The notes below the pieces were generated by a model. The model worked only from the letters and a program-made list of their open reading frames with translations. It did not search any database and was not told the DNA's origin. Shown here one piece after another: positions 3,492-64,000 of a stretch of 64,000 bases of DNA (position 1 is the stretch's first letter; each line of letters starts with the position of its first letter). The stretch comes from an uncultured Alphaproteobacteria bacterium (GTDB lineage Bacteria > Pseudomonadota > Alphaproteobacteria > RF32 > CAG-239): the NCBI GenBank assembly GCA_944391335.1, contig CALXTF010000004.1:16412-80411 (forward strand), read 5' to 3'. The translations under genes were made by a program, and so were the position numbers.

Positions 3492-3583
3492 CATTTCAAA
3501 TAAAGAAAAATTAATGAATTTATAAACTAATTTTTGACTATAAAATCGTTTTTTAAAGGTTGAGATAAAATTTTCCCGAATTT

Positions 3584-4252: not shown

Positions 4253-4501
4253 GGTTTTTACGGTTGTAGATGTAATTAATTGATTATCATCAAGACTATC
4301 GACGGTTCGTGAGACATTGATATCGGTGGTTGAATTTCCATTGACCAGATGAGCCTGATCCTCAGAATATTTTTAATATTCCGAGTTATCTGTATCATTA
4401 ACATCATTGTTCATTTTGTGTCTCCATAAAAGATAAAGCTAAGATTAGTATACTTTAAAATGCGGTTTTAATCAATATTTCAATGGGGGTATTTAAAATA
4501 A

Positions 4502-4789: not shown

Positions 4790-4798
4790 GATTGAAAA

Positions 4799-5053
4799 TT
4801 ATCTTTTGTGAGCATTATCCGCGGCGTTTTTTAATGCTAAAACCTCGCCGATGTTTGTAACTTTGCAGGCAAGATTAGAAACATCCTTAACCTTTTCGGC
4901 AAGAGCGGTGCTTCCAAGGACAGATGTGAGATTATTCATTTCTGTCATCACAAAGCCGGTTGCGTTCATTCCGCAAAAGATAAGGAAAGCGGAACCCATA
5001 AAGCCGTATTTTGCAGATAGTGTGTCAGCGACAGAATTTTTGTTTTGTGCCAT
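4799..5053 (-). CDS. Hypothetical small protein
   Basis: Start moved to the internal ATG (MAQNKNSV...) because AAAGGAG lies 8 nt upstream. The longer track ORF (to 5170) has no RBS. Confidence 0.45.
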   Translation of the reverse strand: MAQNKNSVADTLSAKYGFMGSAFLIFCGMNATGFVMTEMNNLTSVLGSTALAEKVKDVSNLACKVTNIGEVLALKNAADNAHKR

Positions 5054-30034: not shown

Positions 30035-30437
30035 AAAAGGCAGTTGGATAGCCGCGTCATGGAAGGAAAAATCCACAGATGAGGAAAGTCCGGGCTTCAT
30101 GGAAACAAAACACCGGATAACATCCGGCTGGAGCAATCCAAGGGAAAGTGCCGCAGAAAAATACCGCCGAGTATAATTCGGTAAGGTTGAAAAGGCGAGG
30201 TAAGAGCTCACCGCGAAATCGGCAACGATTTTGGCAAAGGTAAACCCTGTTTGAAGCAAGACCAAGTTAGGAGATCCGGAATAACCGGTTATATAGAGCG
30301 TTTCCACTCTACTCCAGAGGTAGGTCGCATGGAATTATTCGGTAACGAATAATCAAGATGAATGGCTGTCAATTTTAACCTTTACTTTAAACGGTAAAGA
30401 TAGTGAAATACAGAACCCGGCTTATAGACTGCCTTTT
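30035..30437 (+). ncRNA. rnpB: RNase P RNA, bacterial type A
   Basis: GAGGAAAGTCCGGGCT (CR-I) near the 5' end and ACAGAACCCGGCTTA (CR-V) near the 3' end. P1 pairing is AAAAGGCAGT (30035-44) with ACTGCCTTTT (30428-37). Confidence 0.9.
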
Positions 30438-30459
30438 GTTTTATTTGAAATGGGGAAAA

Positions 30460-48516: not shown

Positions 48517-48591
48517 TGGGGTGTCGCCAAGAGGTAAGGCAACGGTTTTTGGTATCGTCATTCGTTGGTTCGAATCCAGCCACCCCAGCCA
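48517..48591 (+). tRNA. tRNA-Gln (anticodon UUG), copy 1
   Basis: The 75-nt cloverleaf was folded by hand: acceptor TGGGGTG/CACCCCA, anticodon stem ACGGT/ATCGT, loop TTTTGGT, T-arm GTTGG-TTCGAAT-CCAGC, encoded CCA. It is close to E. coli tRNA-Gln. Confidence 0.9.
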
Positions 48592-48699: not shown

Positions 48700-48737
48700 T
48701 AATGTCAAATTTTAGCCTATTTTATGAGGTGAATTTG

Positions 48738-50510
48738 ATGCTTTTTAAACGTAACTCCATTTATTATGCCGTTATAAATATTCCTAAATCACTGGTTCCT
48801 ATCTACCACCGCAAGCAAATCTGGCAATCATTACATACCAAAGACCGACGAATTGCCTCACTTCGGGTTGAACTTGAAACAATGGCGATACGACAACGAA
48901 TATTAAATGACTTGGAAAACCTTAAACATATCCAAAAAACTACTACCCCAAAAACACCACCTAAACCAGAGCCACCTATTATTTGCCGAGAAGTTGAATA
49001 TACCGAAGAAGAAGCCGAATTACACGCTTATGACTGGTTGACGCAAAAGTCCCATACTGAAAGCAGAAGGTTATTAAATGGCGCAAATCGAATGGAAGAA
49101 CGCAAATATTTTCAAAATCTCCTTTCTGCTTATGAATACAAATATCTCCAACGCAACTACCAAGACATATATGCAGAAACCAATAATTACTTCCAAGAAA
49201 AACAACTTGCGACACCTACCAAAACTTGCGCCGAGATGATATTTAATGCTTTTATGAGGGCAAAAATTCAGCTTTTACGGTATCTGATTGAGTTTTTGAA
49301 TGGCTATTGTGGTGAAATTGATGCCAGCCTTATTGACCGTATGTATTTTAAGCAACTGGATATATCAGCCGAACTCAAACAAAAGAAACAACACAAACCC
49401 GATATGTCTTTGATGCAAGTTGTTAAACATTATAATCAGACTGTATCACGCAACAAAACATCTGACGCAACTAAGGAACGTGTGGCATCAAAAATGGAAT
49501 TGATTGCTGAAATAATCGGGAAAACCAAACCTATGCGACAAATTTCCGCTGATGACTTAAACGACGTGATACAAAATATTCCATATATACCGAAACGTTT
49601 TGGTGAAGGTGTAACCAAAGGAAAAACCATCATCCAAGCAATCAATATGGCAAAACATAACAAAGCCCCTACTCTTTCCGAAAAAACACAAACTGATTAC
49701 ATTCACACATTAAGCTCAATATTTAAATGGGCAAAACAAAAGAAATTTATTGAAGAAAACCCAATGGAAGAAGTGGAAATCCCCTCAATTACCATCAATA
49801 AAAACCAAGACAAATACCTCCCATTTTCGATTAACCAGCTCAATATTATATTTCACTCGACGGTCTATCGTGGATGTTTAAATAATCGTATTGGTCGTTT
49901 CAAAGCTGGTGACAAGATTTATCGTGATGGCTTTTACTGGGTGCCTTTAATCGCCTTATTTTCTGGTATGAGACTTAATGAAATTTGCCAACTCACCACC
50001 GTAGATATTATTACTAAAGATGACGTTGTTTGTTTCAGTATTAACGATAAAAACGGAAAAAAAGTCAAAACCGCCAATGCCATTAGAATTATACCAATAC
50101 ACCCGATGTTAATAAAATGTGGCTTTCTGCAATATGTGGAACAACAAAAAAATAACGTTACCAACAAAACCCTGCGCATATTCCCCGAACTTGTGCCGAA
50201 TTGCCGTGGTGAATTATCAGCCAGCGTATCAAAGTTTTTTAATCGATTATTGGATAAACTTAATGAAACGATTGATAATGATGACGATAAATTTTTGCCT
50301 AAACACGTAGCGCACTCATTCAGACACACTTTTCGCAGTGAACTCCGTAACCATCAAGTTCCGCAGGAAAGAGTTGTTATTTTAGGTGGTTGGGATCAAG
50401 GTTCAAGTTTGGCATCACATTATGGGAGTATATCTGCCAAAGAACTCTATAAAACCGTTTCCGAAAATTTAACCTTTGATGGTTTAGATTTAAGTCATCT
50501 TTATGTATGA
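48738..50510 (+). CDS. int: Tyrosine recombinase / phage-type integrase
   Basis: Catalytic signature SGMRLNE (Arg), HSFRHTFRS (H-x-x-R), LGGW, SHYGS (Tyr). Start set at the ATG behind GAGGTG; the track start at 48702 is possible. Confidence 0.85.
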   Translation: MLFKRNSIYYAVINIPKSLVPIYHRKQIWQSLHTKDRRIASLRVELETMAIRQRILNDLENLKHIQKTTTPKTPPKPEPPIICREVEYTEEEAELHAYDWLTQKSHTESRRLLNGANRMEERKYFQNLLSAYEYKYLQRNYQDIYAETNNYFQEKQLATPTKTCAEMIFNAFMRAKIQLLRYLIEFLNGYCGEIDASLIDRMYFKQLDISAELKQKKQHKPDMSLMQVVKHYNQTVSRNKTSDATKERVASKMELIAEIIGKTKPMRQISADDLNDVIQNIPYIPKRFGEGVTKGKTIIQAINMAKHNKAPTLSEKTQTDYIHTLSSIFKWAKQKKFIEENPMEEVEIPSITINKNQDKYLPFSINQLNIIFHSTVYRGCLNNRIGRFKAGDKIYRDGFYWVPLIALFSGMRLNEICQLTTVDIITKDDVVCFSINDKNGKKVKTANAIRIIPIHPMLIKCGFLQYVEQQKNNVTNKTLRIFPELVPNCRGELSASVSKFFNRLLDKLNETIDNDDDKFLPKHVAHSFRHTFRSELRNHQVPQERVVILGGWDQGSSLASHYGSISAKELYKTVSENLTFDGLDLSHLYV

Positions 50511-50523
50511 TGGAGTAGTTAAG

Positions 50524-51456
50524 ATGCTTGATATAAAAACACCATATTTTAATAGACGTATTCGCCTTTCTAAAAAATCAATAAATGATGCAAAAGAAAA
50601 TATTATATTCCACCTACTCCCTTATATCGTTGCTAGAGAAAGACCTGAAAAACGTGAAGACCTTTCTTATTTTGAAAAAGAAGTAAAACAATGTAAAGCA
50701 ATGATTTCTTTTACTTTGATGGATGGTATTTTATTTAATAATGTTCCGAATACAGAAAAACGTCTTCAATTTAAAATCAAAGCTCTCAAAGGTGGGCAAT
50801 TGAAACAAGATTATTTTGACTTATACAAAATCGAATACAATCACTACATTAATAATAACGGCGACGATACTATTATAAATGGTTTAAGTTATAAAGATAT
50901 ACAAGACCGTATTCGTGAAGATGCTCTTTCTTTAATGATAATGTACTTTTTTGTTTTCAACTTATTACGCCTAGCTCAATATGGCAAAGATGATGACTAT
51001 AGAATAGACAACGCTCGCCGTTTAACGAATAGTATATCTTTTACTATTAATGAAGATGGTAGTCCTATCAAAGTATTTAGCTATGATAAAATTGAAAAAG
51101 CTCGCTCCAGATATATAAAAGCTGCAGCCATTGTCTTTGGTTATATACATACACTATTTAAATATGACAAATTACAATTTACCCACCTTGATTTTAACAA
51201 TGAGGACAATCTCAAGCAAATTAAATCTGCTCTATCTAAATTAGATGATACAGAAATTTATGAAAAATACGACGATATAATGGGCTACATCTTATATGCA
51301 CAAAAGATTCTAACTACAAAGGTATGTAAACACGCTGACAAAAATGAAGATTGGTTCGTTATAAATAAAAGCGATATACGTCGCTATGGGTTTACCGAGT
51401 CGAAGCCGATTCTACCCGATTTTTCCGAATCTGAACGAAAAATCATCAAAAAATAG
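50524..51456 (+). CDS. Hypothetical island protein
   Basis: About 310 aa with no recognisable motif. Start set at the ATG behind GGAG; the track start at 50503 overlaps int. Confidence 0.4.
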   Translation: MLDIKTPYFNRRIRLSKKSINDAKENIIFHLLPYIVARERPEKREDLSYFEKEVKQCKAMISFTLMDGILFNNVPNTEKRLQFKIKALKGGQLKQDYFDLYKIEYNHYINNNGDDTIINGLSYKDIQDRIREDALSLMIMYFFVFNLLRLAQYGKDDDYRIDNARRLTNSISFTINEDGSPIKVFSYDKIEKARSRYIKAAAIVFGYIHTLFKYDKLQFTHLDFNNEDNLKQIKSALSKLDDTEIYEKYDDIMGYILYAQKILTTKVCKHADKNEDWFVINKSDIRRYGFTESKPILPDFSESERKIIKK

Positions 51457-51822: not shown

Positions 51823-52575
51823 ATGGCAAAAGTAAATAAAAAGGTGTCGAAGTCCACCTATAAAAAAACTTCAAAAAGAACAGTTAATGGCGCTCGTCGT
51901 CATAATACTAAGGCAACTTCTGCTACTCGTAAAAGAGAAACAGAAAGCCAACGTCTTGAAAAGACTATGGATAAGATTGCTGCATCTTCCCAGTTTAAGA
52001 AAGCTCAAAAACTTCTTGAACAGATTGGAACGTGCATCTCTCAAACCAGAGAAGCAAGATATAATTTTATGGCTACGATTTATTGCCATATTGGTGATAC
52101 TTTTGGAAATGATGACTTTGAGAAAGGTGCTAAAAAGTATCTTTTGCGTCTTTTCCCTGTATCTGAAGACGAAGACCAGAAGAAACTACACCAGAGTTTC
52201 CGCAACAAATACAATCGTGCTTTAAGATTTTTACGAGATAAAAAAGTTTCTTATGCTGATGTTGACAAAGTCGTGAAGATAATTGGAAAAATCGGTCTCC
52301 AAGCCCTCTTTAATGGTAAAGAAAATGATACTGGTAAGAAGTCTTCTTCCAAAGCAACATTAAAGGACAATGTCCAGAATTTGATGAAGAAGAATGATGC
52401 CGTTAAAATCATTCAGCAGGTTTTGAGTATTCAAGCCGATGAAAAAATCAAAGGTGATTTTGTTCTTTGTTATGCTGATGGGAGACTTTCTTATTCAACA
52501 AAGTCTAAATGGGCAAATAAGTTGGCAAATGGCGATAATTCGTTAGAAGAATTGCCAACTGCCAATGACAAATAA
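51823..52575 (+). CDS. Hypothetical island protein with a Lys/Arg-rich N-terminus
   Basis: Start at MAKVNKK behind GGAGA. The first 45 residues or so are strongly basic, suggesting possible nucleic-acid binding. Confidence 0.45.
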   Translation: MAKVNKKVSKSTYKKTSKRTVNGARRHNTKATSATRKRETESQRLEKTMDKIAASSQFKKAQKLLEQIGTCISQTREARYNFMATIYCHIGDTFGNDDFEKGAKKYLLRLFPVSEDEDQKKLHQSFRNKYNRALRFLRDKKVSYADVDKVVKIIGKIGLQALFNGKENDTGKKSSSKATLKDNVQNLMKKNDAVKIIQQVLSIQADEKIKGDFVLCYADGRLSYSTKSKWANKLANGDNSLEELPTANDK

Positions 52576-52582
52576 GTCATAC

Positions 52583-52622
52583 ATGGCTGCGGTGCTGAAA
52601 TACGCATCGTAGCCATATTTTT
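52583..52622 (+). terminator. Stem-loop followed by a T-run between the basic-protein gene and the Rep-helicase gene
   Basis: ATGGCTGCG / CGTAGCCAT (9 bp including one G-U pair) with a 16-nt loop, then ATTTTT. Confidence 0.45.
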
Positions 52623-52641: not shown

Positions 52642-54783
52642 ATGACATTACGCACGATTAAATCCACCAAATTTATGTCTGGCGCAGAAATTGCCGAAGA
52701 AAGTGATGCTCGCCTTGATAGCTTAAATAATGAAATTCGCATAACAAAAGATAACACGCACAAACAAAAGCTGATTAATTTAAGAAACCGATTGCAGCAT
52801 CATTCATCAGAAACGTTTGCCAATATCATTTACGCATCGCAACAACAAGAAATAAAATACGTTGAAATTAAGCATCTGATTGACAATTACAAGCTCTTAG
52901 CCGAAAGCAAAAAACTTAATCCAGATGATGTTTATTTCATAACCATTAACTGCTGCGAAGGTCATATCAATAAAAAGCCCTATTTTGTTGCGCCTAAAGA
53001 TTTAGCTAACTTCAACGTCAAGACTTCTAAAAATACTATTATTAAACAACTACGTGGATTAGGAACAGCTTTCGGTTATGTGGCATTTGAGGTAAAATAT
53101 GATATACGCATGGGAGCATTTTTGCCCCATTTTCATATTTTAATTTGTGGCATTAGTAAAAAGAACATAGAAGACTATTTCACTTGTTTATACCCTCTCG
53201 AATATCAATTTAAATTAAATCGAGATACTTTTATTGTGTCAAAGAAGAATGATCCACTCATTTATGAAAGACCGCAAAAACTAAAGGTAGTTGATATTGA
53301 GACCGTTAAAGATTCTGAAAAAGTAGCTAGTTATATGTGCAAATTCAAGACATATATGACAAACTATCAACAACAAGATTTAACAGCTTTACCATATTCT
53401 GAAAAGCGCCAAGATTACCACACAAGACCAGAAGATAAAATTCATAATTACCATTTATTGTTTTTGGATAAGTTGTCATTTGGTGAACAGGTGTTTTGTT
53501 TCAATAAGGGTTTACTGACGAACTTCATCAACAACAAAGCCGATAAAATGGCTCAAAACTGCATAAGAATAGCTAAAAGAGGCAAAAAAACGGGGAAATT
53601 GGGTAAAAAAGCCCCAAACCACAACACATACGCCAAGCCTATATCAACTAATAAGATTGTGTTACAATTTTTAAAGTATGATTCTTATAAACCAAAACAA
53701 GAAAAAATCATTGATTATATTAAAGACCATAAATCTTGTATTGTTATTCAACCTACTAATTTTGGTAAGAGTTTATGTTATTATGCATCAGCTTTACAAT
53801 TAAAAGGGTTATGTGTAGTTATAGAGCCTTTAGTATCTTTAATTTATGACCAAGTATCTAAACTTAATAAGATACATAAAAAGTTAGCTCTTGCATTTAC
53901 TGGTGAAACTAAACATAGAGATAAAAAATTAAAGAGATTAAAAAGAGGTATATATAAGTTTTTATATATAGCTCCTGAAATGTTAAAAAATATAGAGTTA
54001 AAAAAGGTATTGTCTAAATTAGATATTTGTATGATAGCCATTGATGAAGCGCATTGTATTGATGTATGGGGTGAAGATTTTAGACCTGATTATCAAGAGC
54101 CATTAAATAAACTTATAAAGAAATACCCAGATGCAAAAGTTATGGCATTGACGGCTACTGCAGGCGACATCACACAAAACGTTATTAAAAAAGTGTGCAA
54201 TATGCCTAAAAAAGCCAAAGTATTTAAAGGCAACTTAAACAGACCGAATATTAAGTATAGCGTAGTTAAAAAAGAATATGATGGATTACAACAGTTATTA
54301 GATACACTCAAACCATACCTTGATAAAGATAATAAACCGACAACTTCGATTATTATATATTGTGCTCATATTGATTATACTTTAGGACTTCAAGATATAT
54401 TAAAAGAGCGTGGTATTAATAGCTATGTATTTAATGGAAAGAGTGATAATAAAAAAGAAATACTCAAAAAATTTAAAAAGGAAAAATGTATTGTTCTAGC
54501 AACCAGTGCTTTCGGTATGGGGATTGATAAACCAGATGTACACTTAGTTATTCACTTTGAGGGTACGTATAATCTTGAAATGTATTATCAAGAATCTGGT
54601 CGGGTTGGTCGTGATGGTGAAAATTCTAAAGCTGTATTGTTTTATTCTGATATAGATATTGAAAGAATGACATATTTTGCCAAGAATGATACAATGAAAG
54701 AAAAGTTAAAGCTGGCTATTAAATATATGCAGATGACAAACAATAAAAAACGTCGTGAATTTTTATTAAATAGTATTGTCTAG
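52642..54783 (+). CDS. Fusion protein: N-terminal HUH-type rolling-circle Rep-like domain plus C-terminal RecQ-family SF2 helicase
   Basis: The N-terminus has YFITIN (motif I-like), LPHFHILICG (HUH) and KVASYMCKFK (Y-x-x-K). The C-terminus has PTNFGKSLCY, VVIEPLVSLIYDQV, DEAHCIDVWGEDFRPDY, ALTATA, SAFGMGIDKPDVHLVIH and YYQESGRVGRDG, all RecQ motifs. Confidence 0.8.
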   Translation: MTLRTIKSTKFMSGAEIAEESDARLDSLNNEIRITKDNTHKQKLINLRNRLQHHSSETFANIIYASQQQEIKYVEIKHLIDNYKLLAESKKLNPDDVYFITINCCEGHINKKPYFVAPKDLANFNVKTSKNTIIKQLRGLGTAFGYVAFEVKYDIRMGAFLPHFHILICGISKKNIEDYFTCLYPLEYQFKLNRDTFIVSKKNDPLIYERPQKLKVVDIETVKDSEKVASYMCKFKTYMTNYQQQDLTALPYSEKRQDYHTRPEDKIHNYHLLFLDKLSFGEQVFCFNKGLLTNFINNKADKMAQNCIRIAKRGKKTGKLGKKAPNHNTYAKPISTNKIVLQFLKYDSYKPKQEKIIDYIKDHKSCIVIQPTNFGKSLCYYASALQLKGLCVVIEPLVSLIYDQVSKLNKIHKKLALAFTGETKHRDKKLKRLKRGIYKFLYIAPEMLKNIELKKVLSKLDICMIAIDEAHCIDVWGEDFRPDYQEPLNKLIKKYPDAKVMALTATAGDITQNVIKKVCNMPKKAKVFKGNLNRPNIKYSVVKKEYDGLQQLLDTLKPYLDKDNKPTTSIIIYCAHIDYTLGLQDILKERGINSYVFNGKSDNKKEILKKFKKEKCIVLATSAFGMGIDKPDVHLVIHFEGTYNLEMYYQESGRVGRDGENSKAVLFYSDIDIERMTYFAKNDTMKEKLKLAIKYMQMTNNKKRREFLLNSIV

Positions 54784-54830
54784 ATTAGATAATTTGAAAG
54801 TGTGTAAAATATCTAAATTAGATAATTTGA
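54784..54830 (+). repeat. Two perfect 14-nt direct repeats ATTAGATAATTTGA (33-bp spacing)
   Basis: Copies at 54784..54797 and 54817..54830, between the Rep-helicase stop and its terminator. Confidence 0.8.
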
Positions 54831-54833: not shown

Positions 54834-54865
54834 TCGGTATGGGCGTAGTGTTCATACCGATTTTT
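54834..54865 (+). terminator. Rho-independent terminator of the Rep-helicase gene
   Basis: TCGGTATG / CATACCGA stem with an 11-nt loop, followed by TTTTT. Confidence 0.6.
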
Positions 54866-55406
54866 ATATATAATTATAAACCGTTCTTCTTGAAACATTA
54901 TATTGTTTAGCGATGGTGGTTATTGGAGTGCGTTTATTTACAAGCTCTTTTATCTCTGCAACTTGTTCGTTGGTTAGTTTATGTTGTCCACCTTTATATT
55001 TACCTTTAAGTTTAGCCAAAGCAATTCCTTCTCGTTGTCGTTCTAAAATTAAATTTCGTTCAAGCTCTGCCACAGCACCAAGCATTGTCATCATCATTTT
55101 TTGATATGGGTCTTGTTTATCAGGGGCAAATATCAAGTTTTCCTTGTGAAATATAATTTTTGCCCCTTTATTGGTTATTTCCTCAACCAAATTCAGCAAG
55201 TCTTTGGTGTTGCGAGCGAGCCTATCCATAGAATGCACATTAACCACGTCACCAGCACGGATATTGAGTAACATCGCTTGAAGTTCGGGACGGTTGGTGT
55301 TTTTACCACTGATTTTTTCGACATACTCCCTATCGCAAGCAACATTTAATAGTTGGCGTTCGGTATTCTGGTCGGTAGTGGAAACTCTCTTGTAATTAAA
55401 AATCAT
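54864..55406 (-). CDS. Serine recombinase (resolvase/invertase family)
   Basis: YKRVSTTDQNTERQ catalytic-serine block, the small (180 aa) form, and a C-terminal HTH IAKQYNVSRRTVYNYI. Confidence 0.85.
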   Translation of the reverse strand: MIFNYKRVSTTDQNTERQLLNVACDREYVEKISGKNTNRPELQAMLLNIRAGDVVNVHSMDRLARNTKDLLNLVEEITNKGAKIIFHKENLIFAPDKQDPYQKMMMTMLGAVAELERNLILERQREGIALAKLKGKYKGGQHKLTNEQVAEIKELVNKRTPITTIAKQYNVSRRTVYNYI

Positions 55407-55464: not shown

Positions 55465-56037
55465 TTAATCGGGCTTTCGATTTAGTTTGCACACTTTTGA
55501 GGCTGTGTTATCGAGGTATACCTTGTTTATACAGTAGATATTCCTTGTCATTAGTTGATATTTTTTCTCTCCTTTCTTATGGGATATACTATTCATATTG
55601 ATACTAGGCATGCCATCGCTATCGAAAAACCTTAGCTTGTTATTGGATAGACCTTTATAAACTGAGTAATGATCCCACTCCTTACACTTAACTCTTACTA
55701 TTAAAGAATTATCAAATTTGAGTTGCTCCATTTGATTAACTATCTCATCAAAACTCAGCTTGTTATTATAAAATGGGCGCATAAATTTTATTTGAGGCTG
55801 TTTCGTTGTTTTTAGATAATCGTTTATAAAAGTCAGTATTTGCTCCAATCTCTTATAATCAGCTCCATTCTCGGCAACATCAAAAAATGAGCTATAACAC
55901 TCTAACTGGTCGATAACATAGTCATATAAGGCTTGAGCTTTCTTTTGTGGTAAATCATATCCAAGCATAACTAACGAGTTAATTCCCGAATATACACTAC
56001 AAAAACGGTCTAATGCTCCTTGCTTAAAAGGTTTCAT
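55465..56037 (-). CDS. Hypothetical protein with possible papain-like Cys/His peptidase fold
   Basis: QGALDRFCSVYSGIN (Q...C) and WDHYSVY (H) are spaced like C39-type peptidases; this is a tentative call. The start ATG lies 1 nt after the upstream stop (TAATATG). Confidence 0.35.
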   Translation of the reverse strand: MKPFKQGALDRFCSVYSGINSLVMLGYDLPQKKAQALYDYVIDQLECYSSFFDVAENGADYKRLEQILTFINDYLKTTKQPQIKFMRPFYNNKLSFDEIVNQMEQLKFDNSLIVRVKCKEWDHYSVYKGLSNNKLRFFDSDGMPSINMNSISHKKGEKKYQLMTRNIYCINKVYLDNTASKVCKLNRKPD

Positions 56038-56038
56038 A

Positions 56039-56362
56039 TTAATACTCACTCGCAAACATAACTGTTAAAACCCTATTAGTTACTTCTTCTAACTCTGGAT
56101 TGGGCGAGTAGTATTCGTAATTCAAATCATACATATCAATCTTCCAGAAAATTTGTTGCTCGTGATAATCAAAACAGCCAAAATCATGTTCGCCATAAGG
56201 GTCATTGTCTTCGGTAAAGATATTAAATGTTTTTACTTTATTTATAATCTCTTGTTGCTGTTCGGTTGGTAGGCTAGCAATCCCACTTGTTAAAATAACT
56301 TTGCCACTGATTAGAGTAGTCCTAAATTTATCATTTAATTCAGCAATGCGTTTTGTATTCAT
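56039..56362 (-). CDS. DUF3768-family protein
   Basis: NDPYGEHDFG...IFWKIDMYD...NRVLTVMFASEY matches my recollection of the conserved DUF3768 blocks common on plasmids and ICEs. Confidence 0.6.
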   Translation of the reverse strand: MNTKRIAELNDKFRTTLISGKVILTSGIASLPTEQQQEIINKVKTFNIFTEDNDPYGEHDFGCFDYHEQQIFWKIDMYDLNYEYYSPNPELEEVTNRVLTVMFASEY

Positions 56363-56724
56363 ATTTTTACTCCTTTAAAATAAAAAAAGAGCCGAGGTAT
56401 TTAACCAAGGCTCTGAATAGTTGCGGATTGAGGTAAGTGATATGCCCTACAAAACTTATTTTCTACGTATGTAATGTAAAGCATATCACACCTCACTTTC
56501 AAAACATAAAAACCTTTTCTGCTCTGATGAAAAAGCAGACTAAATAAGGCTTATATGTCAGTGATTTCATATTCGAAATTAACGAATCGGCTCAACTTTG
56601 AATATAATTAATTGTATTATATTCTACCGCAAATTGCAAGTTTAAAATTAAACAAAACAAAGGAAAATCAAGCGTTTAATAATTTTGTTTATATAAAAAT
56701 AAACTAATTTTAGGAGCTCAAAAA

Positions 56725-56906
56725 ATGAAAAAAGATGATGCAAAGCTATTCGTGAAATTCTAGAAAGACTGAAGAAGGATTTAATCCACCGCCGAGGCTT
56801 TGTTTGCCAATGGTGTGGACATAAAGCCTTAACCCCAACTGGCGGAACTTGCCCCAACAGCCCCAATGACAAACATCAATACATCAAAGCTAATGTTGAT
56901 GAGTAA
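56725..56906 (+). pseudogene. Decayed Cys-rich (zinc-ribbon-like) mini-gene, copy 1
   Basis: AGGAG RBS and ATG at 56725 run into TAG after 12 codons. A different frame (from 56745) reads AIREILERLKKDLIHRRGFVCQWCGHKALTPTGGTCPNSPNDKHQYIKANVDE but has no start codon. Confidence 0.45.
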
Positions 56907-56955
56907 AAATATGCTCTAAATCAATAAACAGAATGTTTGAAAAACAGCGAAATAA

Positions 56956-57104
56956 TTGCACGTTCAAAAAAATAACACACCAAGCACACCAGCATATATC
57001 TGCCAATTTTGCGGAAAGAAAACCACAACTCCCACGGTGGTATCTGTCGCTTTTCCCCATACCAAAACAAAACCCATAAGTTTATCAAGGCTGAAATAAT
57101 ATAG
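56956..57104 (+). pseudogene. Decayed Cys-rich mini-gene, copy 2 (frameshifted paralogue)
   Basis: ...YICQFCGKKTTTP in one frame continues as HGGICRFSPYQNKTHKFIKAEII in another. It is collinear with copy 1 (CQ[WF]CG.K..TP.GG.C..SP...KH.[YF]IKA). Confidence 0.45.
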
Positions 57105-57186
57105 GTTTATACAAAATATTTTACTAAATTAACTAACTCTTATCTTTTTTGATTCTAAGATGCATAAGGTTGAAAGGAATCAATGA

Positions 57187-57906
57187 ATGATTAATACGTT
57201 AGAAGAATTTATTGCCTGTTATAAAGAAATTAAACAGCAAGGATGGATTAGAACACATAGAAGTGGTCCTACTGGAATCGGTAAAACATTGGAAGATTTA
57301 CTAGGAATTCCAGAAAATAATCTACATGAACCTGACTTTGGTGATTATGAACTTAAATCGTGTCGAATAGGTTCTAATAGTATGCTAACATTATTTACCC
57401 AGACACCTCAACCGCCAAGAGCTAATTCTTATCTGCGTGAAAAGTATGGTTATTCCAGTGACGCTTATGATAATGATGAAAAAGTTTTACATGCTACATT
57501 AACTGCATCAAGGTACACTTCAATTGCAAACACTAGTAAATCATTAAAAATTACGTGTTCATCTGATAAAATTTTTATAAGCTCAAATACAGAAGATGAA
57601 GATGTATATTGGAATAAAAATGAACTAGAAAAAAGTTTTAATAAAAAATATAAAAACAAATTTGTATATGCAAAAGCTTTATGTCGTGGAACAAGAGATA
57701 GTGAAGAATTTCTTTTCACGGAAGCTTATGAAGTTTCTGGATTCTCATATGATTCATTTATACGGCTTTTAGAAGAAGGTAAAATATATGTAGATTTACG
57801 TATAGGGCAATATCCTGATGGAAGAACTCATGACCATGGGACAGGATTCCGTATTAGAGAAGAAGACCAAAACCTTCTTTTTACAATAAACAGAAAAATT
57901 GTATAA
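57187..57906 (+). CDS. Type II restriction endonuclease, MvaI/BcnI family (MutH-like PD-ExK)
   Basis: 239 aa. GPTGIGKTLEDLLGI, EPDFGDYELKS (PD...ExK), LTLFTQTP and GRTHDHGTGFRI are collinear with my recollection of the R.MvaI/R.BcnI blocks. The size matches those monomeric enzymes. Confidence 0.8.
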   Translation: MINTLEEFIACYKEIKQQGWIRTHRSGPTGIGKTLEDLLGIPENNLHEPDFGDYELKSCRIGSNSMLTLFTQTPQPPRANSYLREKYGYSSDAYDNDEKVLHATLTASRYTSIANTSKSLKITCSSDKIFISSNTEDEDVYWNKNELEKSFNKKYKNKFVYAKALCRGTRDSEEFLFTEAYEVSGFSYDSFIRLLEEGKIYVDLRIGQYPDGRTHDHGTGFRIREEDQNLLFTINRKIV

Positions 57907-60099
57907 TTAACTGATTTTCTTCAATACAACGATATGCTCATTTGTCATTGTTGCAACTTTCTCACCACTTATATTTGTTGGAGAGTTTAGAGAAGGCATA
58001 ACTTTATTTGATATATTTCTATCAATAGTATAAATATGTTTAAGCCCATAATTTTGAGCCAATTCCGAAATAATTTTATCAGTTTGCAGATAAATATTTT
58101 TAACCGTTCTATTACCAACCACCCAGAATTGATATCCTGCTTTTTTGGTTTTTTGGGCTATCGTACGTATGGATTCATCTAACTCTTTGTAAAAACTAAA
58201 AACATCACCAGACCTTTCTATATCTATATCTTTTATTCTTTCTAATGCCTTTCTTAAAGTCTCACTATGTAATGAATATTCAAAGCCATTTCTGTATTTT
58301 TTTCCACCCATTAAAGATTTATCTATGCTCATTATTTCTTGGTTAGTTAAATTATCAATATTAAGCCATTGTAAAGACAAACGACTATATTCACCATATG
58401 CTACCGTAGTCCTGCTGTCACCATAAGGCGGAGACGTTATAATTAAATCATATTCATTATCTTCCACATCAGTTAATGTTATGGCATTATTATTCAAAAT
58501 AGATACCAGTGGTTTTGTATCTATTGTATTTAAAATTTCTCCAAATTCATTCATTTTTTCAATATTGCGTGTCAATATATCTTCAAAAATTTTTATTACA
58601 TTTGGTGAAAAGGCGTCTAATTTATTTTTGGGAAGACGAAACATTTTAAATTCACCATTTCTGCGGTTAGAAACGTACCTAATTGTCTCACTCATCGCAA
58701 TATAACAAAAATCACGAATATAGATATTTTTAATTTCAGCAATACAATTTTTAATTAATTGCAGCAATAATATCACATTTGGTTTAAACCAATACCCTAA
58801 ATTTTTAAATGATGGCAATGAGAAGTCCTTATTTTTTAATCTACAATATTTTTCTAAATACAAATGAGCGTTTTCACCCCATCCATCTTTGGCCGATATA
58901 TCAAGTTTTTCTTGTTCAATTATATATGCATTTACAGAATCATAGAAGTCCTTATCGTTATTATAATTTTCTTTGATTCTATGCATTAGCAAAATTGTTT
59001 CTTGCTGTAATAAATTAATATCTATATTGGTTGTCTTAACTTTCGACAAATACAAAGCCAAAGGATTAATATCGCAACCTGTAACTTTATTAATACCTGC
59101 TAATAATCCTTCAACAAGTACTGTTCCTGAACCAACAAAAGGATCTAACAATGAATTGATATTTTTTACTTTTTTCACCAATCTAATTATATTTTTACTA
59201 ATAGGTGCGACCATAACTGCTGGATAAGAATGTAGTCCATGTGTATATTCGTGTACATCATTTCCTTTAAAATCCCAAAATCTCTCTGGTAACTCTTTTA
59301 ATCTCTTAACTAAATTTTCCTCTTCTTCGGTATGATTCTCAAATAAATCCATTTGTTGCTCATCTTCTATAGAATTTGATATTTTATCATTTATACCTTT
59401 ATGGGTCTTTACTTCTACTGTGCAAATAGTATCATTATGCCAACCACCATGTGGAACCATTAAAATTCGCTCTATTTCAAAACCGTATTTATATCCAATA
59501 CCTCCACTATTCCATCCGAAAGTGATTACTTTTCCTCCAATCTTAACAATACGTGAAATTTCTTTTTTATGATTTCCCCAAAAAGATGCTTTAGTTGTAT
59601 CCCATGTTACATTGTAACCAACATCATTATAGCACTCACTAACTTGTCTTGGGGAATATGGTGGGTCATATAAAACACCATCAATACTATCGTCTTCAAA
59701 AATTTTTAAGAAATCAAGTGCATCCAAATGATAATCTGTATCGTATTTTTCATTTAAATCATTCGTAATATTAGCAAATTTGTTCTTATTGGCAAATGGG
59801 TCGATCCATGTACCTTGTGTCATTTCATCTTGTATTAAGGATGCAATAGGTTTGATGTCAAAAGTATTTTTGTTCGGCATAGCCCATACTCTTTCAATAA
59901 TGACATCTTTATTGTTATTTGGAATAATCGAATTTATTTTCTTTCTAGCATCATTCGGTTTAGAAGCATTCAACGGAATACACCATACATTACCTATACG
60001 TTCAACTCCATCTATTCTATTTTGTGTGCATAATGCCTGCACTCGTCTTGCAGTCATATTCCACTTCGTTGCAGCTTCTTTAACACTTAAATATTTCAT
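57907..60099 (-). CDS. HTH + two DNA methyltransferase domains in one polypeptide
   Basis: N-terminal excisionase/MerR-like HTH (LSVKEAATKWNMTARRVQAL...WCIP). Domain 1 has WIDPFANKNK ... VLYDPPYSPRQ. Domain 2 has HSYPAVMVAPI, LLDPFVGSGTVLVEG ... IITSPPYGDSR. Start at the ATG behind GAGAGG (60099). Confidence 0.8.
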   Translation of the reverse strand: MKYLSVKEAATKWNMTARRVQALCTQNRIDGVERIGNVWCIPLNASKPNDARKKINSIIPNNNKDVIIERVWAMPNKNTFDIKPIASLIQDEMTQGTWIDPFANKNKFANITNDLNEKYDTDYHLDALDFLKIFEDDSIDGVLYDPPYSPRQVSECYNDVGYNVTWDTTKASFWGNHKKEISRIVKIGGKVITFGWNSGGIGYKYGFEIERILMVPHGGWHNDTICTVEVKTHKGINDKISNSIEDEQQMDLFENHTEEEENLVKRLKELPERFWDFKGNDVHEYTHGLHSYPAVMVAPISKNIIRLVKKVKNINSLLDPFVGSGTVLVEGLLAGINKVTGCDINPLALYLSKVKTTNIDINLLQQETILLMHRIKENYNNDKDFYDSVNAYIIEQEKLDISAKDGWGENAHLYLEKYCRLKNKDFSLPSFKNLGYWFKPNVILLLQLIKNCIAEIKNIYIRDFCYIAMSETIRYVSNRRNGEFKMFRLPKNKLDAFSPNVIKIFEDILTRNIEKMNEFGEILNTIDTKPLVSILNNNAITLTDVEDNEYDLIITSPPYGDSRTTVAYGEYSRLSLQWLNIDNLTNQEIMSIDKSLMGGKKYRNGFEYSLHSETLRKALERIKDIDIERSGDVFSFYKELDESIRTIAQKTKKAGYQFWVVGNRTVKNIYLQTDKIISELAQNYGLKHIYTIDRNISNKVMPSLNSPTNISGEKVATMTNEHIVVLKKIS

Positions 60100-60192
60100 A
60101 TTATTACCTCTCACATTTGTTTTATACGCAAAAACGAACAAATGCAAGGCAAAAATATTTTTAATAACAAAACATTTGGTATGTATTATTTA

Positions 60193-61971
60193 TTAACCAT
60201 TAAAAAATTGTTCATATAAGTCTCTTCCCATTTGGGCATAATGACTGGCTTTATAATTCAAAAAATTAAATTTAGAAACATCTTGAAGTTTTTCTTTATA
60301 ATAAGTGACATTTCCTGTTTTTTTATTTATAATTAAATTTCTCAAACAGTTAATAATCCCATTAATAAATGTAACATTTAACACGTTATTTGTATTTTTT
60401 CTTCTAAATTTCCATTGATCTTGCCCTATAGCTTCCTTAAAAGCTATAAATAAGAACCTTAATTGTTCCGCACAAAAATCTCTATATTCATTTAAGATAT
60501 CATATTCTTCACTTGTATATACTTCTTTATTTTCTTTACTTGCTATTTTTAATCTTTCCTTATTTGTGTTACCCCATAAAGAATATAAACTATCATCCCC
60601 TTCTAGCTTGACTAAAGGTTTTAATCCATAACTGATAATGGAAGCCGTTTTAATTTTTTCCTTTTCAAATGCCAGTGTTTCAAATTTATCGCAGAGAGGG
60701 CCAGATTCATTCAATTTCAATAAAATTTTTCTGGCAATTGCAACTGTCGAAAATGGCTTTTGAACTTCTTCTATTATCTGCAACAATTCAGAACTAACTT
60801 TCTTCTGATTAGAATTAATTTCTTTAAAAATCGTTGCTTCAAATTTTAAACAATCTTGTTTTGGTAAGTTGCGAGGAAATAAAATTGCTGTAACTAAAAG
60901 ATTTTGTTTTACTCTCAACTTTGCAATTTTTTCCTCATAAGTATCTGTTCCTTCATGATATGTATAAACTCTATGCTGACCATCTATAATGCCAATAATA
61001 TTTGCATGATCTTTAATCTCTACGGAAATTGGATCAGTTTTTATTGTTCTGCTTGAACCATCAGCTTGGAACTCACCATTATCATCTATTATTATTTTTT
61101 CCGATTTTTCGTTATATAATGTAATTTCATCTATAGGAATCGTAACTATAATATTGTTTATGAATACTCTATCATTATCATATAAAAATTTACGCATTGA
61201 TTTTATCTTAGATGGATTTAACATTCTCTGATAAAAAACTACATCGTCATCATCATTCCAACCATCTTTTCTCAAGACTTGCGCTCGTCTTAACAAGGAA
61301 GCTGCATCGATGTAAAAAGATATTATTTTAAAACCATTATTAAATGAAGAATGATGTTCTGGTAAAATGTTTCCTTTAAAACTATTTGTAGACAATGACG
61401 TTGATTGCAAAACTTTTACTCCTATACAGTCATCATCTATATTCAAAAATTTAAAAAATTCAGACTTTGCTGATCTTTTAATTACTGAAACTATTTTCTT
61501 AAAATATAACAAAGTCGGATATTCTATGTATGTAACATTAGAAACGACTTCTTTATGTTCATTAGCTATTTTTTGTTTAGAAATATAGACTATTCTCACT
61601 TGTGCTTGATCTAATGAATACATATTATCAAAACGATCCCGCATAAAATCCCTAAATCCTGAAAATTTCTCATGATTTTTTAAGAATTCTATAAATTTTT
61701 TAGGATTTTCGTTTATTTTACTATATATCACATTTTTTTTAAGCAAATGAGTAGATGTGTCCCCTACAGTATCTTCTATCAGTAAAATTACATTTTCATA
61801 AACATAAATTGCATCTAATTCACTTGTCCTACTTTCATACTCAAATTCTGTTCCGTTAATACGAGGAACTGAAGAAAAACCCATATTTATCAGAAAGTCT
61901 CGTATCTCTTTTCTGAATGCCCTCTGTTCTTTTTCTTGATCGGTTAATTTTCTCTTTCTTTTCTTTACCAT
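60193..61971 (-). CDS. DGQHR-domain protein (DndB-like, ParB/Srx superfamily) with an extra N-terminal domain
   Basis: Literal motif IIGIIDGQHRVYTYHEG in the middle of a 592-aa protein. The first 200 aa or so are unassigned. Start ATG lies 1 nt after the upstream MTase stop (TAATATG) with AAGGA as RBS; the track start at 61998 is less likely. Confidence 0.75.
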   Translation of the reverse strand: MVKKRKRKLTDQEKEQRAFRKEIRDFLINMGFSSVPRINGTEFEYESRTSELDAIYVYENVILLIEDTVGDTSTHLLKKNVIYSKINENPKKFIEFLKNHEKFSGFRDFMRDRFDNMYSLDQAQVRIVYISKQKIANEHKEVVSNVTYIEYPTLLYFKKIVSVIKRSAKSEFFKFLNIDDDCIGVKVLQSTSLSTNSFKGNILPEHHSSFNNGFKIISFYIDAASLLRRAQVLRKDGWNDDDDVVFYQRMLNPSKIKSMRKFLYDNDRVFINNIIVTIPIDEITLYNEKSEKIIIDDNGEFQADGSSRTIKTDPISVEIKDHANIIGIIDGQHRVYTYHEGTDTYEEKIAKLRVKQNLLVTAILFPRNLPKQDCLKFEATIFKEINSNQKKVSSELLQIIEEVQKPFSTVAIARKILLKLNESGPLCDKFETLAFEKEKIKTASIISYGLKPLVKLEGDDSLYSLWGNTNKERLKIASKENKEVYTSEEYDILNEYRDFCAEQLRFLFIAFKEAIGQDQWKFRRKNTNNVLNVTFINGIINCLRNLIINKKTGNVTYYKEKLQDVSKFNFLNYKASHYAQMGRDLYEQFFNG

Positions 61972-61972
61972 A

Positions 61973-63250
61973 TTAAAGTTCCTTGTATTCATTTTCATCT
62001 ATATCTAATTTAATAGGACTTAAAATCACCTCTTTTTCATTAATTCGATCATCTAAATTGATACCCCTAATAAATTTATGCGTTATCTTATTTGAATAGG
62101 AATACAATTTTTCTTTAGGGCTTATTAATTTATCAATTTTATCTACATAAGAAAAAAGAGCGTCAATGCCAAATTTAGACAACGGAGCTTTAGAAATTAG
62201 TGCATTAATTATTTTTTCTATCTTTTCTTTTTCTTTTAATGTAGATAATAATATTGTGTACTTGTAGCAATCAACACTGTTTTTCTTTAAACATTTTTCT
62301 GATGATTTTTCAACTTTTATCTTTTGTACAATCCTTACATCTTGATCATCTATCTTTTTTAACAATATTCTTGCATATTTAAGAGCTCTCAATTGCAAAA
62401 TTATTTTTTCAAAATCCATTTGATTGACCAAATACTTTTTCTCTTTTTCATATTCCGATTGCTTCTCTGTATTCGTATTTTTTATATAATTTTTAAACAT
62501 CGAAATATATTCAGAATTTAGCTCCGTTCCTATATATCTTCTATTCATATTTAAGGCTTTAGCTAAAACAGTTCCGCTTCCACTAAAAGGATCTAAAACA
62601 ACATCATTTTCTTCTGTTGATAACGTCAATATCCTCGCAACAAGATCTTCTGGGAGTGGGCAAAAATGGCGTATATAACCTTTTCCCCAAGAACCTTGAG
62701 TTGGTATTGGATAATGCCAAATACCATCGGGAGTTTTTCCTTTAGGGTTATAACGCTCTGGATATCTTATCCACCAAGATTTAAGTACTTCATAATCTCT
62801 GATTTTATCAATGAAAAACTTGTAATCGTCTGTTTTAGAAAACATCAAAATATACTCAAAAGAATTTCGCATCTGCCCTTTATGCGTCCATGGAACTGTT
62901 TTATCTTTTTCCCATATAATGATTTCTCGGAATATCCATCCAGCTTCTCTTATTTTATTTGCTATATCGAAAGGCAATGCAACAATTTCACCATCTTTTC
63001 TCAACGCATCAACTATAACCCATAAACTTCCTGTAGATTTTGTACATGCATAAACACTCTTAAAAACTGTACCAATATCGTTTAGATATTCTTTATAAGA
63101 CTGACCAAAACCTATTTGTTCTTTGTAGCCATAATCCTTCATATCAAAATATGGAGGAGATGTTACAGTAACATCCACTATTGGCTCTTTTATTAGTTTA
63201 TCAATCTTACGAGCGTCGTATTTATGTATATTACACAGCTTATCGTTCAT
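61973..63250 (-). CDS. Beta-class N4/N6 DNA methyltransferase with an unassigned C-terminal extension of about 170 aa
   Basis: Motif IV VTVTSPPYFD near the N-terminus, followed later by motif I VVLDPFSGSGTVLAKA (IV-then-I order, the beta class). Confidence 0.85.
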   Translation of the reverse strand: MNDKLCNIHKYDARKIDKLIKEPIVDVTVTSPPYFDMKDYGYKEQIGFGQSYKEYLNDIGTVFKSVYACTKSTGSLWVIVDALRKDGEIVALPFDIANKIREAGWIFREIIIWEKDKTVPWTHKGQMRNSFEYILMFSKTDDYKFFIDKIRDYEVLKSWWIRYPERYNPKGKTPDGIWHYPIPTQGSWGKGYIRHFCPLPEDLVARILTLSTEENDVVLDPFSGSGTVLAKALNMNRRYIGTELNSEYISMFKNYIKNTNTEKQSEYEKEKKYLVNQMDFEKIILQLRALKYARILLKKIDDQDVRIVQKIKVEKSSEKCLKKNSVDCYKYTILLSTLKEKEKIEKIINALISKAPLSKFGIDALFSYVDKIDKLISPKEKLYSYSNKITHKFIRGINLDDRINEKEVILSPIKLDIDENEYKEL

Positions 63251-63934: not shown

Positions 63935-64000
63935 TGGGGTGTCGCCAAGTGGTAAGGCATCGGCTTTTGGTGCCGACATTCGTTGGTTCGAATCCAGCCA
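63935..64000 (+). tRNA. tRNA-Gln (anticodon UUG), copy 2, truncated by the window edge
   Basis: Same acceptor, T-arm and anticodon loop as copy 1. The anticodon stem is TCGGC/GCCGA and there is one D-loop change. The last 9 nt or so lie beyond position 64000. Confidence 0.9.

Follow-up and report, generated by a model that had tools for sequence, protein, structure and literature searches.

The Rep-RecQ gene

The window analysed here is the whole of a 64,000-nucleotide stretch from an uncultured gut member of the Alphaproteobacteria (contig CALXTF010000004.1 of assembly GCA_944391335.1, positions 16,412 to 80,411). At 52642-54783, on the forward strand, it carries a gene with an ATG start coding for a protein of 713 amino acids, in which an HUH endonuclease domain is fused to a minimal RecQ helicase core. 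We refer to it as Rep-RecQ. The open reading frame, and every motif string quoted for it in an earlier note written from the sequence alone, were located in the 713-residue translation. The gene belongs to the backbone of a genomic island, and we consider it likely that its product acts on the DNA of the island itself, nicking and unwinding it so that it can be replicated, transferred or both. All positions within the gene given below are on the forward strand.

Rep-RecQ is not a chance reading frame, since homologues exist and the ratio of non-synonymous to synonymous substitution rates (dN/dS) is low in both halves, at 0.15-0.27 in the HUH domain and 0.14-0.18 in the helicase. The sole relaxed segment (dN/dS of 0.4-0.8) is the Lys-rich linker between them (residues 301-338, 53542-53655), which contains runs of seven and six A and has a predicted local distance difference test score (pLDDT) below 50 at residues 304-335. 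Upstream of the HUH domain is a helical region (residues 1-89, 52642-52908), for which three long helices are predicted by AlphaFold2 (AF2), at 14-34, 38-52 and 62-89. When the window is compared with the related locus L011 (10001-10290), codons 1-89 are saturated (dS of 1.9, dN of 0.33), while dS in the helicase half is 0.057. This difference points to recombination inside the gene, with the N-terminal helical region as a swappable module: the region appears to be exchanged between close relatives, and the gene to be a mosaic.

The N-terminal HUH domain

The HUH endonuclease-like domain (residues 90-300, 52909-53541) was recognised from invariant residues, profile alignment with hhalign, and an AF2 model compared with known and predicted structures using Foldseek. 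Motif I, YFITIN (residues 98-103, 52933-52950), is on a predicted strand (97-103) and aligns with the FLTLT of both a microvirus initiator and RepA of pC194. The segment FEVKYDIR (residues 149-156, 53086-53109), which includes E150, forms a strand beside the HUH strand and aligns with GEYGDR of the microvirus initiator and EITYN of pC194 RepA. Motif II, PHFHILICG (residues 162-170, 53125-53151), with the HUH signature as H163-F-H165, is on a predicted strand (159-169), and motif III, SYMCKFKTY (residues 230-238, 53329-53355), combines Y231-x-x-K234 with a second invariant tyrosine, Y238, in the region of a predicted helix (225-232). In the hhalign alignment, Y231 corresponds to the first tyrosine of the microvirus initiator.

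The alignment of nine members of the family, which are 28-43% identical in this domain, has E20, T101, E150, R156, P162, H163, H165, Y231, K234, T237 and Y238 as invariant positions; the two histidines and the tyrosine on which the earlier note had based its HUH assignment (H163, H165 and Y231) are therefore conserved throughout. The PHxH motif is also present in all 19 further loci found in metagenomes, and motif III is kept in every metagenome copy that does not end before it. E150 is a candidate third metal ligand; it is invariant, and in the AF2 model it is located on the strand (144-154) neighbouring the HUH strand.

For residues 1-335, comparison with the Pfam, NCBIfam, PHROGs and PADLOC models and with PDB sequences gave no match, and a search of PDB sequences with a profile of the N-terminal domain returned nothing relevant. 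Individual members of the family do have sub-threshold Pfam matches, and these are confined to two HUH families, Rep_1 (PF01446) and REP_ORF2-G2P (PF23343). P0022 scores 20.3 bits against Rep_1 (E-value of 4e-4, profile positions 6-114, cut-off of 33.2 bits), and P0009 and P0012 score 17.2 and 16.4 bits, respectively, against REP_ORF2-G2P (E-values of 0.006-0.012, cut-off of 27.8 bits). The window protein itself has no Pfam match to either family.

A search of phage genomes with the N-terminal domain (tblastn) gave one insignificant match (E-value of 0.9), a microvirus initiator, which was used only as a lead for profile alignment with hhalign. The family profile scores 45.7 (probability of 84%) against a microvirus initiator that is a bona fide member of PF23343, with motifs I, II and III in register, and 47.2 (probability of 88%, and 80-88% across runs) against pC194 RepA, with motifs I and II in register. 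The score against RepU of pUB110 is 29.8. As controls, eight unrelated proteins scored 12-18, and 100 shuffled targets scored at most 21.0. The likeness of motif II to the PHFHVLI of the pC194 protein, which the earlier note had pointed out, holds (its RepA reads NPHFHVLIAV), and pUB110 RepU reads NQHMHVLVCV at this position.

The AF2 model of the domain, built on the alignment of nine sequences, has a pLDDT of 84.3 and a predicted template modelling score (pTM) of 0.80, while a single-sequence AlphaFold model of the whole protein was unusable (pLDDT of 31.5). The elements follow each other as the strand of motif I (97-103), helices, the strand carrying E150 (144-154), the HUH strand (159-169), and a helix (225-232) ending at Y231. 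Foldseek found 18 matches for this model in BFVD at E-values of 1e-3 or lower, the top one being the "Replication initiator protein [Microvirus mar5]" (E-value of 6.6e-5, probability of 1.0). It is the only one of these matches to carry a name; the accession series of the unnamed ones suggest metagenomic Microviridae. Among PDB structures, the top match is the HUH domain of the wheat dwarf virus Rep (6q1m, E-value of 0.058), with the nuclease domains of porcine circovirus 2 (PCV2), adeno-associated virus (AAV) and minute virus of mice (MVM) ranking lower. The domain can be modelled confidently, and its best fold matches are HUH replication initiators, in keeping with the HUH assignment of the earlier note.

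The nucleophilic tyrosine candidate of Rep-RecQ is C-terminal to the HUH motif, and the motifs are in the order I-II-III. A tyrosine that follows the HUH motif in this order is characteristic of Rep proteins and not of relaxases, and no relaxase family of Pfam or NCBIfam matches Rep-RecQ at an E-value of 1 or lower. The invariant residues, the sub-threshold Pfam matches, the hhalign scores and the AF2 and Foldseek results together support the assignment of this domain as a predicted HUH endonuclease of the Rep class, akin to Rep_1 and to the G2P/microvirus initiators, and outside both curated families.

The RecQ helicase half

Residues 339-713 (53656-54780) make up a RecQ helicase core with two RecA-like domains and an aromatic-rich loop. 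Pfam places DEAD at residues 351-508 and Helicase_C at 554-659. The helicase half passes the threshold of NCBIfam TIGR00614 (296 bits, cut-off of 219.8) and fails that of TIGR01389, the bacterial RecQ equivalog (306 bits, cut-off of 640). The closest solved structure is the catalytic core of E. coli RecQ (1oyw, E-value of 6e-63), in an alignment which is limited to RecQ residues 16-346 and ends before the Zn-binding and winged-helix modules. A Pfam scan of Rep-RecQ gave no match to RecQ_Zn_bind (PF16124), RQC (PF09382) or HRDC (PF00570), while the nearest cellular RecQ proteins (35-41% identity) do carry all three. The description of this half in the earlier note as a RecQ core devoid of RQC and HRDC is therefore accurate.

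Motifs I, II, III, V and VI are all present, as is the aromatic-rich loop. The Walker A motif is PTNFGKS (residues 371-377, 53752-53772), the DEAH box is DEAHC (residues 468-472, 54043-54057) and is followed by VWGEDFRPDY (residues 475-484), and the stretch YYQESGRVGRDG (residues 648-659, 54583-54618) contains QESGRVGRDG. The Walker A motif had been singled out as atypical; homologues share it in the form T[NSAD][FY]GKS, so it is a trait of the family. The protein ends in KKRREFLLNSIV, presumably at the position where canonical RecQ starts its cysteine cluster.

Distribution, unfused relatives and decayed copies

An exhaustive phmmer scan of 1.84 billion representative sequences recovered 23 proteins homologous to the N-terminal domain. 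Both the domain and the fusion are rare, the fusion forming about seven clusters in that set, and all seven full-length clusters (667-711 amino acids) join the HUH domain to DEAD and Helicase_C. A word-index search of proteins yielded no more than two close relatives, both truncated, to which a profile search added three fragments. Rep-RecQ is intact (713-719 amino acids, with N-terminal domains 79-94% identical) in four contigs of metagenome-assembled genomes (MAGs). Three of the four genomes are MAGs of uncultured gut Alphaproteobacteria and the fourth is labelled Lachnospiraceae, which may be the result of mis-binning. The metagenome scan added the 19 further loci mentioned above, 14 of which have the intact fusion with its PHxH, YxxKxxTY, TxxGKS, DEAH and QExGR motifs. 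The HUH-RecQ fusion is real, and the majority of its copies are intact.

One lineage has the two activities on separate proteins. In locus L033, a stand-alone HUH protein of 300 amino acids (P0022, at 2221-3123), which keeps a Rep_1-like CPVC motif, is followed 56 nucleotides later and in another frame by a RecQ gene (3179-5032). The latter codes for 617 amino acids with RQC and HRDC domains and a canonical TGTGKS Walker A motif, and is 37% identical to the helicase half of the window protein. The same unfused arrangement occurs in a second sample (L034), where the RecQ call is 567 amino acids long and has RQC, with no HRDC match. Adjacent genes in one lineage and a fusion in others are a classical sign that nicking and helicase activities work together, and the persistence of the fusion in seven clusters, in 5 close genomes and in 14 of the 19 metagenome loci, along with the dN/dS values, likewise argues for a functional link between the two halves.

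These relatives also bear on whether the HUH-like domain might be catalytically dead and serve as a DNA-binding or oligomerisation module for RecQ in recombination or repair of the island. Such a role would agree with the fact that no curated HUH model is reached, and with the partner of the unfused HUH protein being a full RecQ with RQC and HRDC. All catalytic residues are however invariant over deep divergence while their surroundings vary, and the domain is under purifying selection as strong as the dN/dS of 0.15-0.27 indicates, which makes a dead domain very improbable.

Decayed copies are also found. Among loci L005-L008, P0001 has a 3' truncation and P0002 an internal deletion. P0026 and P0032 have a frameshift in the poly-A run of the stretch corresponding to the Lys-rich linker, which could be a sequencing error, the mark of a pseudogene, or a route to an isoform consisting of the HUH domain only. 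P0029 (L028-L032), a 5'-truncated remnant retaining only the helicase and located beside a different integrase of 257 amino acids, is the most abundant form in the collection, with 130 blocks listed. The frequency of truncated copies fits a gene that the element requires in order to move and that the host can do without.

A different C-terminus was observed in P0003 (583 amino acids). Its HUH domain and linker are as in P0004, and the RecQ half is swapped, exactly at the domain boundary, for an HNH-like C-terminus of the form CxxC...EIEH...CxxC, with a sub-threshold match to PF01844 (E-value of 0.072). Locus L048 has a similar open reading frame of 585 amino acids which lacks the helicase motifs.

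The island, its backbone and its cargo

The island is about 15.3 kb long and is found between a tRNA-Gln gene at 48517-48591 and a second copy starting at 63935. The left border, tRNA-Gln(UUG), is on the forward strand, and relatives of the island likewise adjoin tRNA genes. It is followed on the same strand by a DUF6538-type tyrosine integrase (48702-50510; PF20172 and PF00589), which is conserved upstream of Rep-RecQ, by gene X (50503-51456, 317 amino acids), whose syntenic homologues are 25-41% identical, and by gene Y (51823-52575, 250 amino acids with a Lys-rich N-terminus), which is directly upstream of Rep-RecQ in all cases. On the reverse strand are a serine recombinase with resolvase and HTH_7 domains (54864-55406; PF00239, E-value of 4e-38), which is convergent with Rep-RecQ and 51-95% identical in nearly all related islands, the backbone gene Z (55465-56055, 190-196 amino acids, 196 in the window), and a DUF3768 protein (56039-56362, 107 amino acids; PF12599, E-value of 6e-32). 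Genes X, Y and Z belong to no known family, with nothing found in PDB, Pfam or PADLOC; the DUF3768 protein also has nothing in PADLOC, and nothing was found on DUF3768 or DUF6538 in the searchable literature. The variable cargo (57187-63250) comprises an MvaI/BcnI-like restriction enzyme, two DNA methyltransferases and a DndB/DGQHR-like protein. The second tRNA-Gln copy, in the right border region (63935-64000, forward strand), is cut by the end of the window; it is 91% identical to the first over 66 nucleotides and is complete in loci L001 and L002.

The order and orientation of the backbone (integrase, X, Y, Rep-RecQ, resolvase, Z, DUF3768) recur in nearly all related loci, with identities from 25% for X to 95% for the resolvase. 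The cargo of the other islands includes Lamassu, DpnII restriction-modification, OLD/AAA, KAP NTPase, HEPN, CBASS (cyclic oligonucleotide-based antiphage signalling system) and MmeI-like restriction-modification. Related islands adjoin tRNA-Gln, Asn, Ser or Trp genes, and an identical island has different neighbours in L001 and L002. The element is a tRNA-targeting integrative genomic island. Since Rep-RecQ is fixed in a conserved backbone while the cargo differs between islands, and the sites are beside tRNA genes, a role in maintenance of the element is suggested.

The richness of these islands in defence systems raises the question of whether Rep-RecQ is itself a defence or toxin effector, in which a RecQ-like motor, as in DpdF and PsyrT, would be joined to a nickase damaging phage or plasmid DNA. 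The helicase half does match the PADLOC models of DpdF (E-value of 7.5e-90) and PsyrT (E-value of 8.7e-71), but these matches cover the generic RecQ core only and the HUH domain has none in PADLOC. Rep-RecQ also belongs to the invariant backbone by the integrase, while defence cargo is swapped between islands, and it is not joined by a set of Dpd or PsyrA partners from one island to the next. Nickases of the HUH type, besides, are sequence-specific and directed at their own element. We consider this explanation improbable. The narrower idea that Rep-RecQ is part of a Dpd system, which came from the DpdF match and a weak DpdB match in the cargo, was rejected because the cargo is replaced in other islands and Rep-RecQ stays.

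The weak DpdB match (E-value of 2.8e-5) is that of the DGQHR/DndB-like protein (60193-61998, 601 amino acids), whose gene is between the two DNA methyltransferases and beside the MvaI/BcnI-like endonuclease, making up an unusual restriction-modification-like cluster. Between DUF3768 and the restriction enzyme there are 820 nucleotides (56363-57186) with no called gene, in which a terminator-like hairpin (56518-56539, reverse strand) and two short Cys/Pro-rich reading frames resembling gene remnants were noted. The flanks of the island are two complete tRNA-Gln(UUG) genes, 91% identical, rather than a tRNA gene and a short 3' repeat, and the unit in L002 is itself flanked by other mobile and defence genes (Apyc1-like and CD-NTase). 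These two features suggest tandem arrays of islands at tRNA-Gln. The resolvase is 82-95% identical in most islands, compared with 25-55% for the integrase, X, Y and the HUH domain; as it is so much more conserved, the right module (resolvase, Z and DUF3768) seems to be exchanged or constrained apart from the left one. Well outside the island, the window has a class A RNase P RNA (30036-30440, 276 bits), which confirms that it is chromosomal.

Cis elements and search for an origin

Two terminator-like hairpins frame the gene. The first, a strong one, has 13 pairs (52583-52616) and a T-run (whole feature 52583-52622, forward strand), and ends about 20 nucleotides before the start codon of Rep-RecQ. 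Its stem is retained in L022 through compensatory changes, and it fills the gap between gene Y and Rep-RecQ, leaving no room for a promoter. This suggests an attenuator or control of read-through into Rep-RecQ. The second, TCGGTATG...CATACCGA (54834-54860, with its T-run 54834-54865, forward strand), is just after the gene, and its stem sequence TCGGTATG/CATACCGA is conserved in L009-L012, L014 and L022, even though the proteins of L014 and L022 are only 41-54% identical.

Between the end of the gene and the second hairpin are two direct copies of an 18-nucleotide element (TCTAGATTAGATAATTTG and TCTAAATTAGATAATTTG, 54779-54829, forward strand), 33 nucleotides apart, the first of which overlaps the stop codon. 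The element contains the palindrome TCTAAATTAGA and is retained in L009-L012. The window contains the exact 13-mer TCTARATTAGATA three times, where 0.02 occurrences would be expected. A different odd-centred palindrome is found at the stop codon in L022, L014, L021 and L016, the palindromes of these distant islands being TCTAG.A.CTAGA, GTCTAC.C.GTAGAC, AAAGTCAAC.C.GTTGACTTT and GACGTT.CTT.AACGTC. Given that such palindromes have a null rate of about 22% per 57-nucleotide window in AT-rich sequence, their recurrence in five of seven lineages (P of about 0.01) is suggestive. The repeats and palindromes after the stop codon are therefore candidates for an initiator-binding (iteron), nick-recognition or resolvase site.

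A third copy of the palindrome is located in the helicase coding region (54013-54025, forward strand), in the codons for LSKLDI and within a 19-nucleotide run which is the longest identical stretch between the genes of the window and L022. It was considered as an in-gene cis site and downgraded, as SKLD with the same codons is also found in gene X at 51235; this copy is possibly a coincidence of codon usage.

Direct repeats of one motif on the same strand, two invariant tyrosines (Y231 and Y238), and an HUH domain with a helicase in one protein, as in the RepHel layout, are all features that would fit a Helitron- or IS91-like rolling-circle transposase moving the segment between two ends by peel-and-paste. 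The insertion of the island is however already explained by its tRNA-gene borders and tyrosine integrase, the helicase of Helitron/IS91 is either of the Pif1-like superfamily 1B (SF1B) or absent, while that of Rep-RecQ is a superfamily 2 (SF2) RecQ, and the window does not contain multiple dispersed copies. A transposase of this type is accordingly a most unlikely explanation.

Proposed function

The catalytic residues of both domains are conserved, both halves are under selection, and the placement of the gene in the island backbone is constant. Nicking, the direction of the helicase, replication and the choice of origin are inferences; as the most likely explanation, we propose that Rep-RecQ is the DNA-processing enzyme of a nick-and-unwind, rolling-circle replication of the excised island of about 15 kb at tRNA-Gln, a proposal for which we regard the chances as evenly balanced. 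The tyrosine integrase would excise the island as a circle, and the HUH domain, with a metal held by H163, H165 and probably E150, would nick one strand at a specific site, with Y231 acting as the nucleophile and the protein being left covalently attached to the 5' end. The RecQ core, as a 3'->5' motor, would then load at the nick on the intact strand and unwind ahead of a host polymerase extending the free 3'-OH. Y238 or another subunit would close the displaced strand in a further transesterification; the adjacent resolvase would reduce multimers and the integrase re-insert copies. The polarity is that of known rolling-circle systems, in which the PcrA, Rep and superfamily 3 (SF3) helicases also move 3'->5', and the fused helicase would free the element from recruiting a host superfamily 1 (SF1) helicase.

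Several observations weigh against this proposal. The window protein is below the threshold of every curated HUH family, and the fold matches in PDB are weak, none having an E-value of 1e-3 or lower. Canonical RecQ relies on its Zn and winged-helix modules for stability and strand separation; neither is present in the RecQ core of Rep-RecQ, whose Walker A is also deviant (TNFGKS), and helicase activity is for these reasons not assured. Many copies of Rep-RecQ are inactivated, including the most abundant variant. Neither an origin or nick site nor a copy-number signal was found. In the cis region, the repeats after the stop codon are, in their exact form, limited to the closest relatives, the classical nick sequences (CTTGATA, TAGTATTAC and TACTACGAC) have only short, chance-level matches in the island core, and the spacers on either side of gene Y, when aligned between distant islands, reveal terminator-like hairpins and no conserved origin-like block. 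No contig among the 36 loci has the terminal overlap of a circular or excised form, and no relatives were found in 72,556 plasmids (tblastn with the N-terminal domain) or in IMG/VR viral contigs, so that autonomous replication is left with no direct support.

Rep-RecQ could instead be a relaxase-helicase for conjugative mobilisation. Its HUH domain would nick at an origin of transfer (oriT) and pilot the strand through the mating pore of a co-resident conjugative element while its helicase unwound the DNA being transferred, the island then being an integrative mobilisable element. An integrase is encoded on the island, genes for packaging or a capsid are not, and an HUH domain and a helicase in one chain follow the logic of TraI and TrwC. 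The palindrome followed by a conserved hairpin at the end of the gene is an arrangement seen in many oriT regions, and Rep-related proteins reportedly feature as putative relaxases in reviews of integrative mobilisable elements (PMC5704250, PMC5357655). Mobilisation would not preclude replication, and the relaxase of ICEBs1 serves in both. The order of the motifs is however of the Rep type, unlike that of classical relaxases, and the nearest relatives by profile and by fold are replication initiators. The 3'->5' direction expected of RecQ is opposite to that of the SF1B helicases linked to relaxases, and none of the islands examined has a gene for a coupling protein or for type IV secretion. 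Mobilisation as the function of Rep-RecQ is thus rather unlikely, although less so than the defence, transposase and dead-domain explanations.

Relation to known systems

Our proposal of a replication initiator can be set against the systems that Rep-RecQ most resembles. With the pC194/pUB110-type proteins of Rep_1, it shares the order and spacing of the motifs (FxTLT and FxTxN, EITYN and EVKYD, PHFHVLI and PHFHILI, respectively) and a tyrosine with a lysine three residues on, and P0022 has the CPVC motif in common with them. The Rep-RecQ family differs in its added helical N-terminus of 90 residues, in an invariant second tyrosine at +7, and in lacking a conserved Glu at the fourth residue ahead of the tyrosine (the position of Glu210 in pC194). 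The plasmid proteins also recruit the host PcrA, whereas Rep-RecQ is fused to its helicase and is chromosomal and integrative rather than carried on a small plasmid. The microvirus and inovirus initiators (PF23343; phiX174 gpA-like) are the best fold matches, with alignable motifs I-III and two tyrosines in motif III, but the spacing of these tyrosines is +4 in place of +7, they use the host Rep helicase instead of a fused one, and there are no phage genes around Rep-RecQ.

Compared with bacterial RecQ (E. coli RecQ, TIGR01389), DpdF and PsyrT, both RecA-like domains, motifs 0-VI and the aromatic-rich loop are the same. Rep-RecQ departs from RecQ in ending with the helical hairpin that precedes the Zn cluster (KKRREFLL, against CRRxxLLxYFGE...C..C), in its Walker A (T[NSAD][FY]GKS, against TGGGKS) and in missing three of the four RecQ modules, and from Dpd and PsyrTA in that only its helicase core is matched and their partners are absent.

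Other integrative elements provide a parallel for the setting of the gene. In phage-inducible chromosomal islands such as the Staphylococcus aureus pathogenicity islands (SaPI; Pri-Rep, with ori just 3' of rep) and in replicative integrative and conjugative elements such as ICEBs1 (NicK, with the host PcrA and HelP), the initiator is encoded beside the integrase, and, as in our island, repeats are immediately downstream of the initiator gene. Copying of the excised form probably stabilises such elements, as it could here. The SaPI Rep is however a helicase of the AAA+/SF3 type with a primase, acting in theta-type initiation, and NicK, a relaxase of the Rep_trans type, depends on an SF1 helicase of the host, while Rep-RecQ combines a nickase and an SF2 helicase in one chain. 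Genes for packaging or conjugation, unlike in these elements, are absent from the Rep-RecQ island.

HUH nickases are known to pair with SF1 helicases (the host PcrA, Rep or UvrD, or fused as in TraI and Helitron) or with SF3 helicases (viral and plasmid Rep). The fusions among these, namely HUH with SF3 in the Rep of parvoviruses, circular Rep-encoding single-stranded (CRESS) DNA viruses and plasmids, HUH with SF1B in TraI/TrwC, and the Pif1-like SF1B of Helitron RepHel, have in common with Rep-RecQ a single polypeptide that nicks and then unwinds. The viral Rep proteins share in addition the N-terminal nuclease and C-terminal motor, and the 3'->5' polarity of SF3 is the one expected for RecQ. 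The motor of Rep-RecQ is distinct in being an SF2 RecQ, monomeric or dimeric rather than a hexameric ring, and its host element in being an island which integrates at tRNA genes and encodes a tyrosine integrase as well as a resolvase. The earlier note knew of no HUH-RecQ fusion, and we likewise found no HUH-RecQ or HUH-SF2 fusion in the searchable literature, a provisional result given the incomplete full-text coverage. Kazlauskas et al. (PMC6668415), who surveyed how diverse Rep proteins are, use none of the terms SF1, SF2, RecQ, UvrD and DEAD, and the HUH enzymes of eukaryotic viruses are described in the mriyavirus paper (PMC11253617) as working with SF3 helicases, with phages hijacking host SF1 helicases.

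Fusion of an HUH enzyme to a helicase is thus already known in kind, and what is provisionally new is the helicase superfamily and the setting, a previously uncharacterised family of defence-carrying integrative islands. It is possible, and we propose it tentatively, that Rep-RecQ founds a third, independently evolved class of HUH-helicase (HUH with SF2), as the self-contained rolling-circle initiator of an unrecognised family of defence islands in gut Alphaproteobacteria, with L033 as a snapshot of the origin of the fusion. If this is true, the nick-and-unwind solution would have been invented a third time, with a different engine. Should the enzyme be active, such a minimal RecQ, with an altered P-loop and no Zn, RQC or HRDC modules, would test what the RecQ core needs for unwinding. 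Rep-RecQ could also be used as a naturally occurring HUH-tag, already joined to a motor, in tools for DNA-protein conjugation. For the bacteria themselves, it would be the module that replicates or transfers a family of tRNA-integrated islands by which restriction, Lamassu, CBASS and other defence systems are shuttled among uncultured gut Alphaproteobacteria, and would bear on how defence islands spread and persist.

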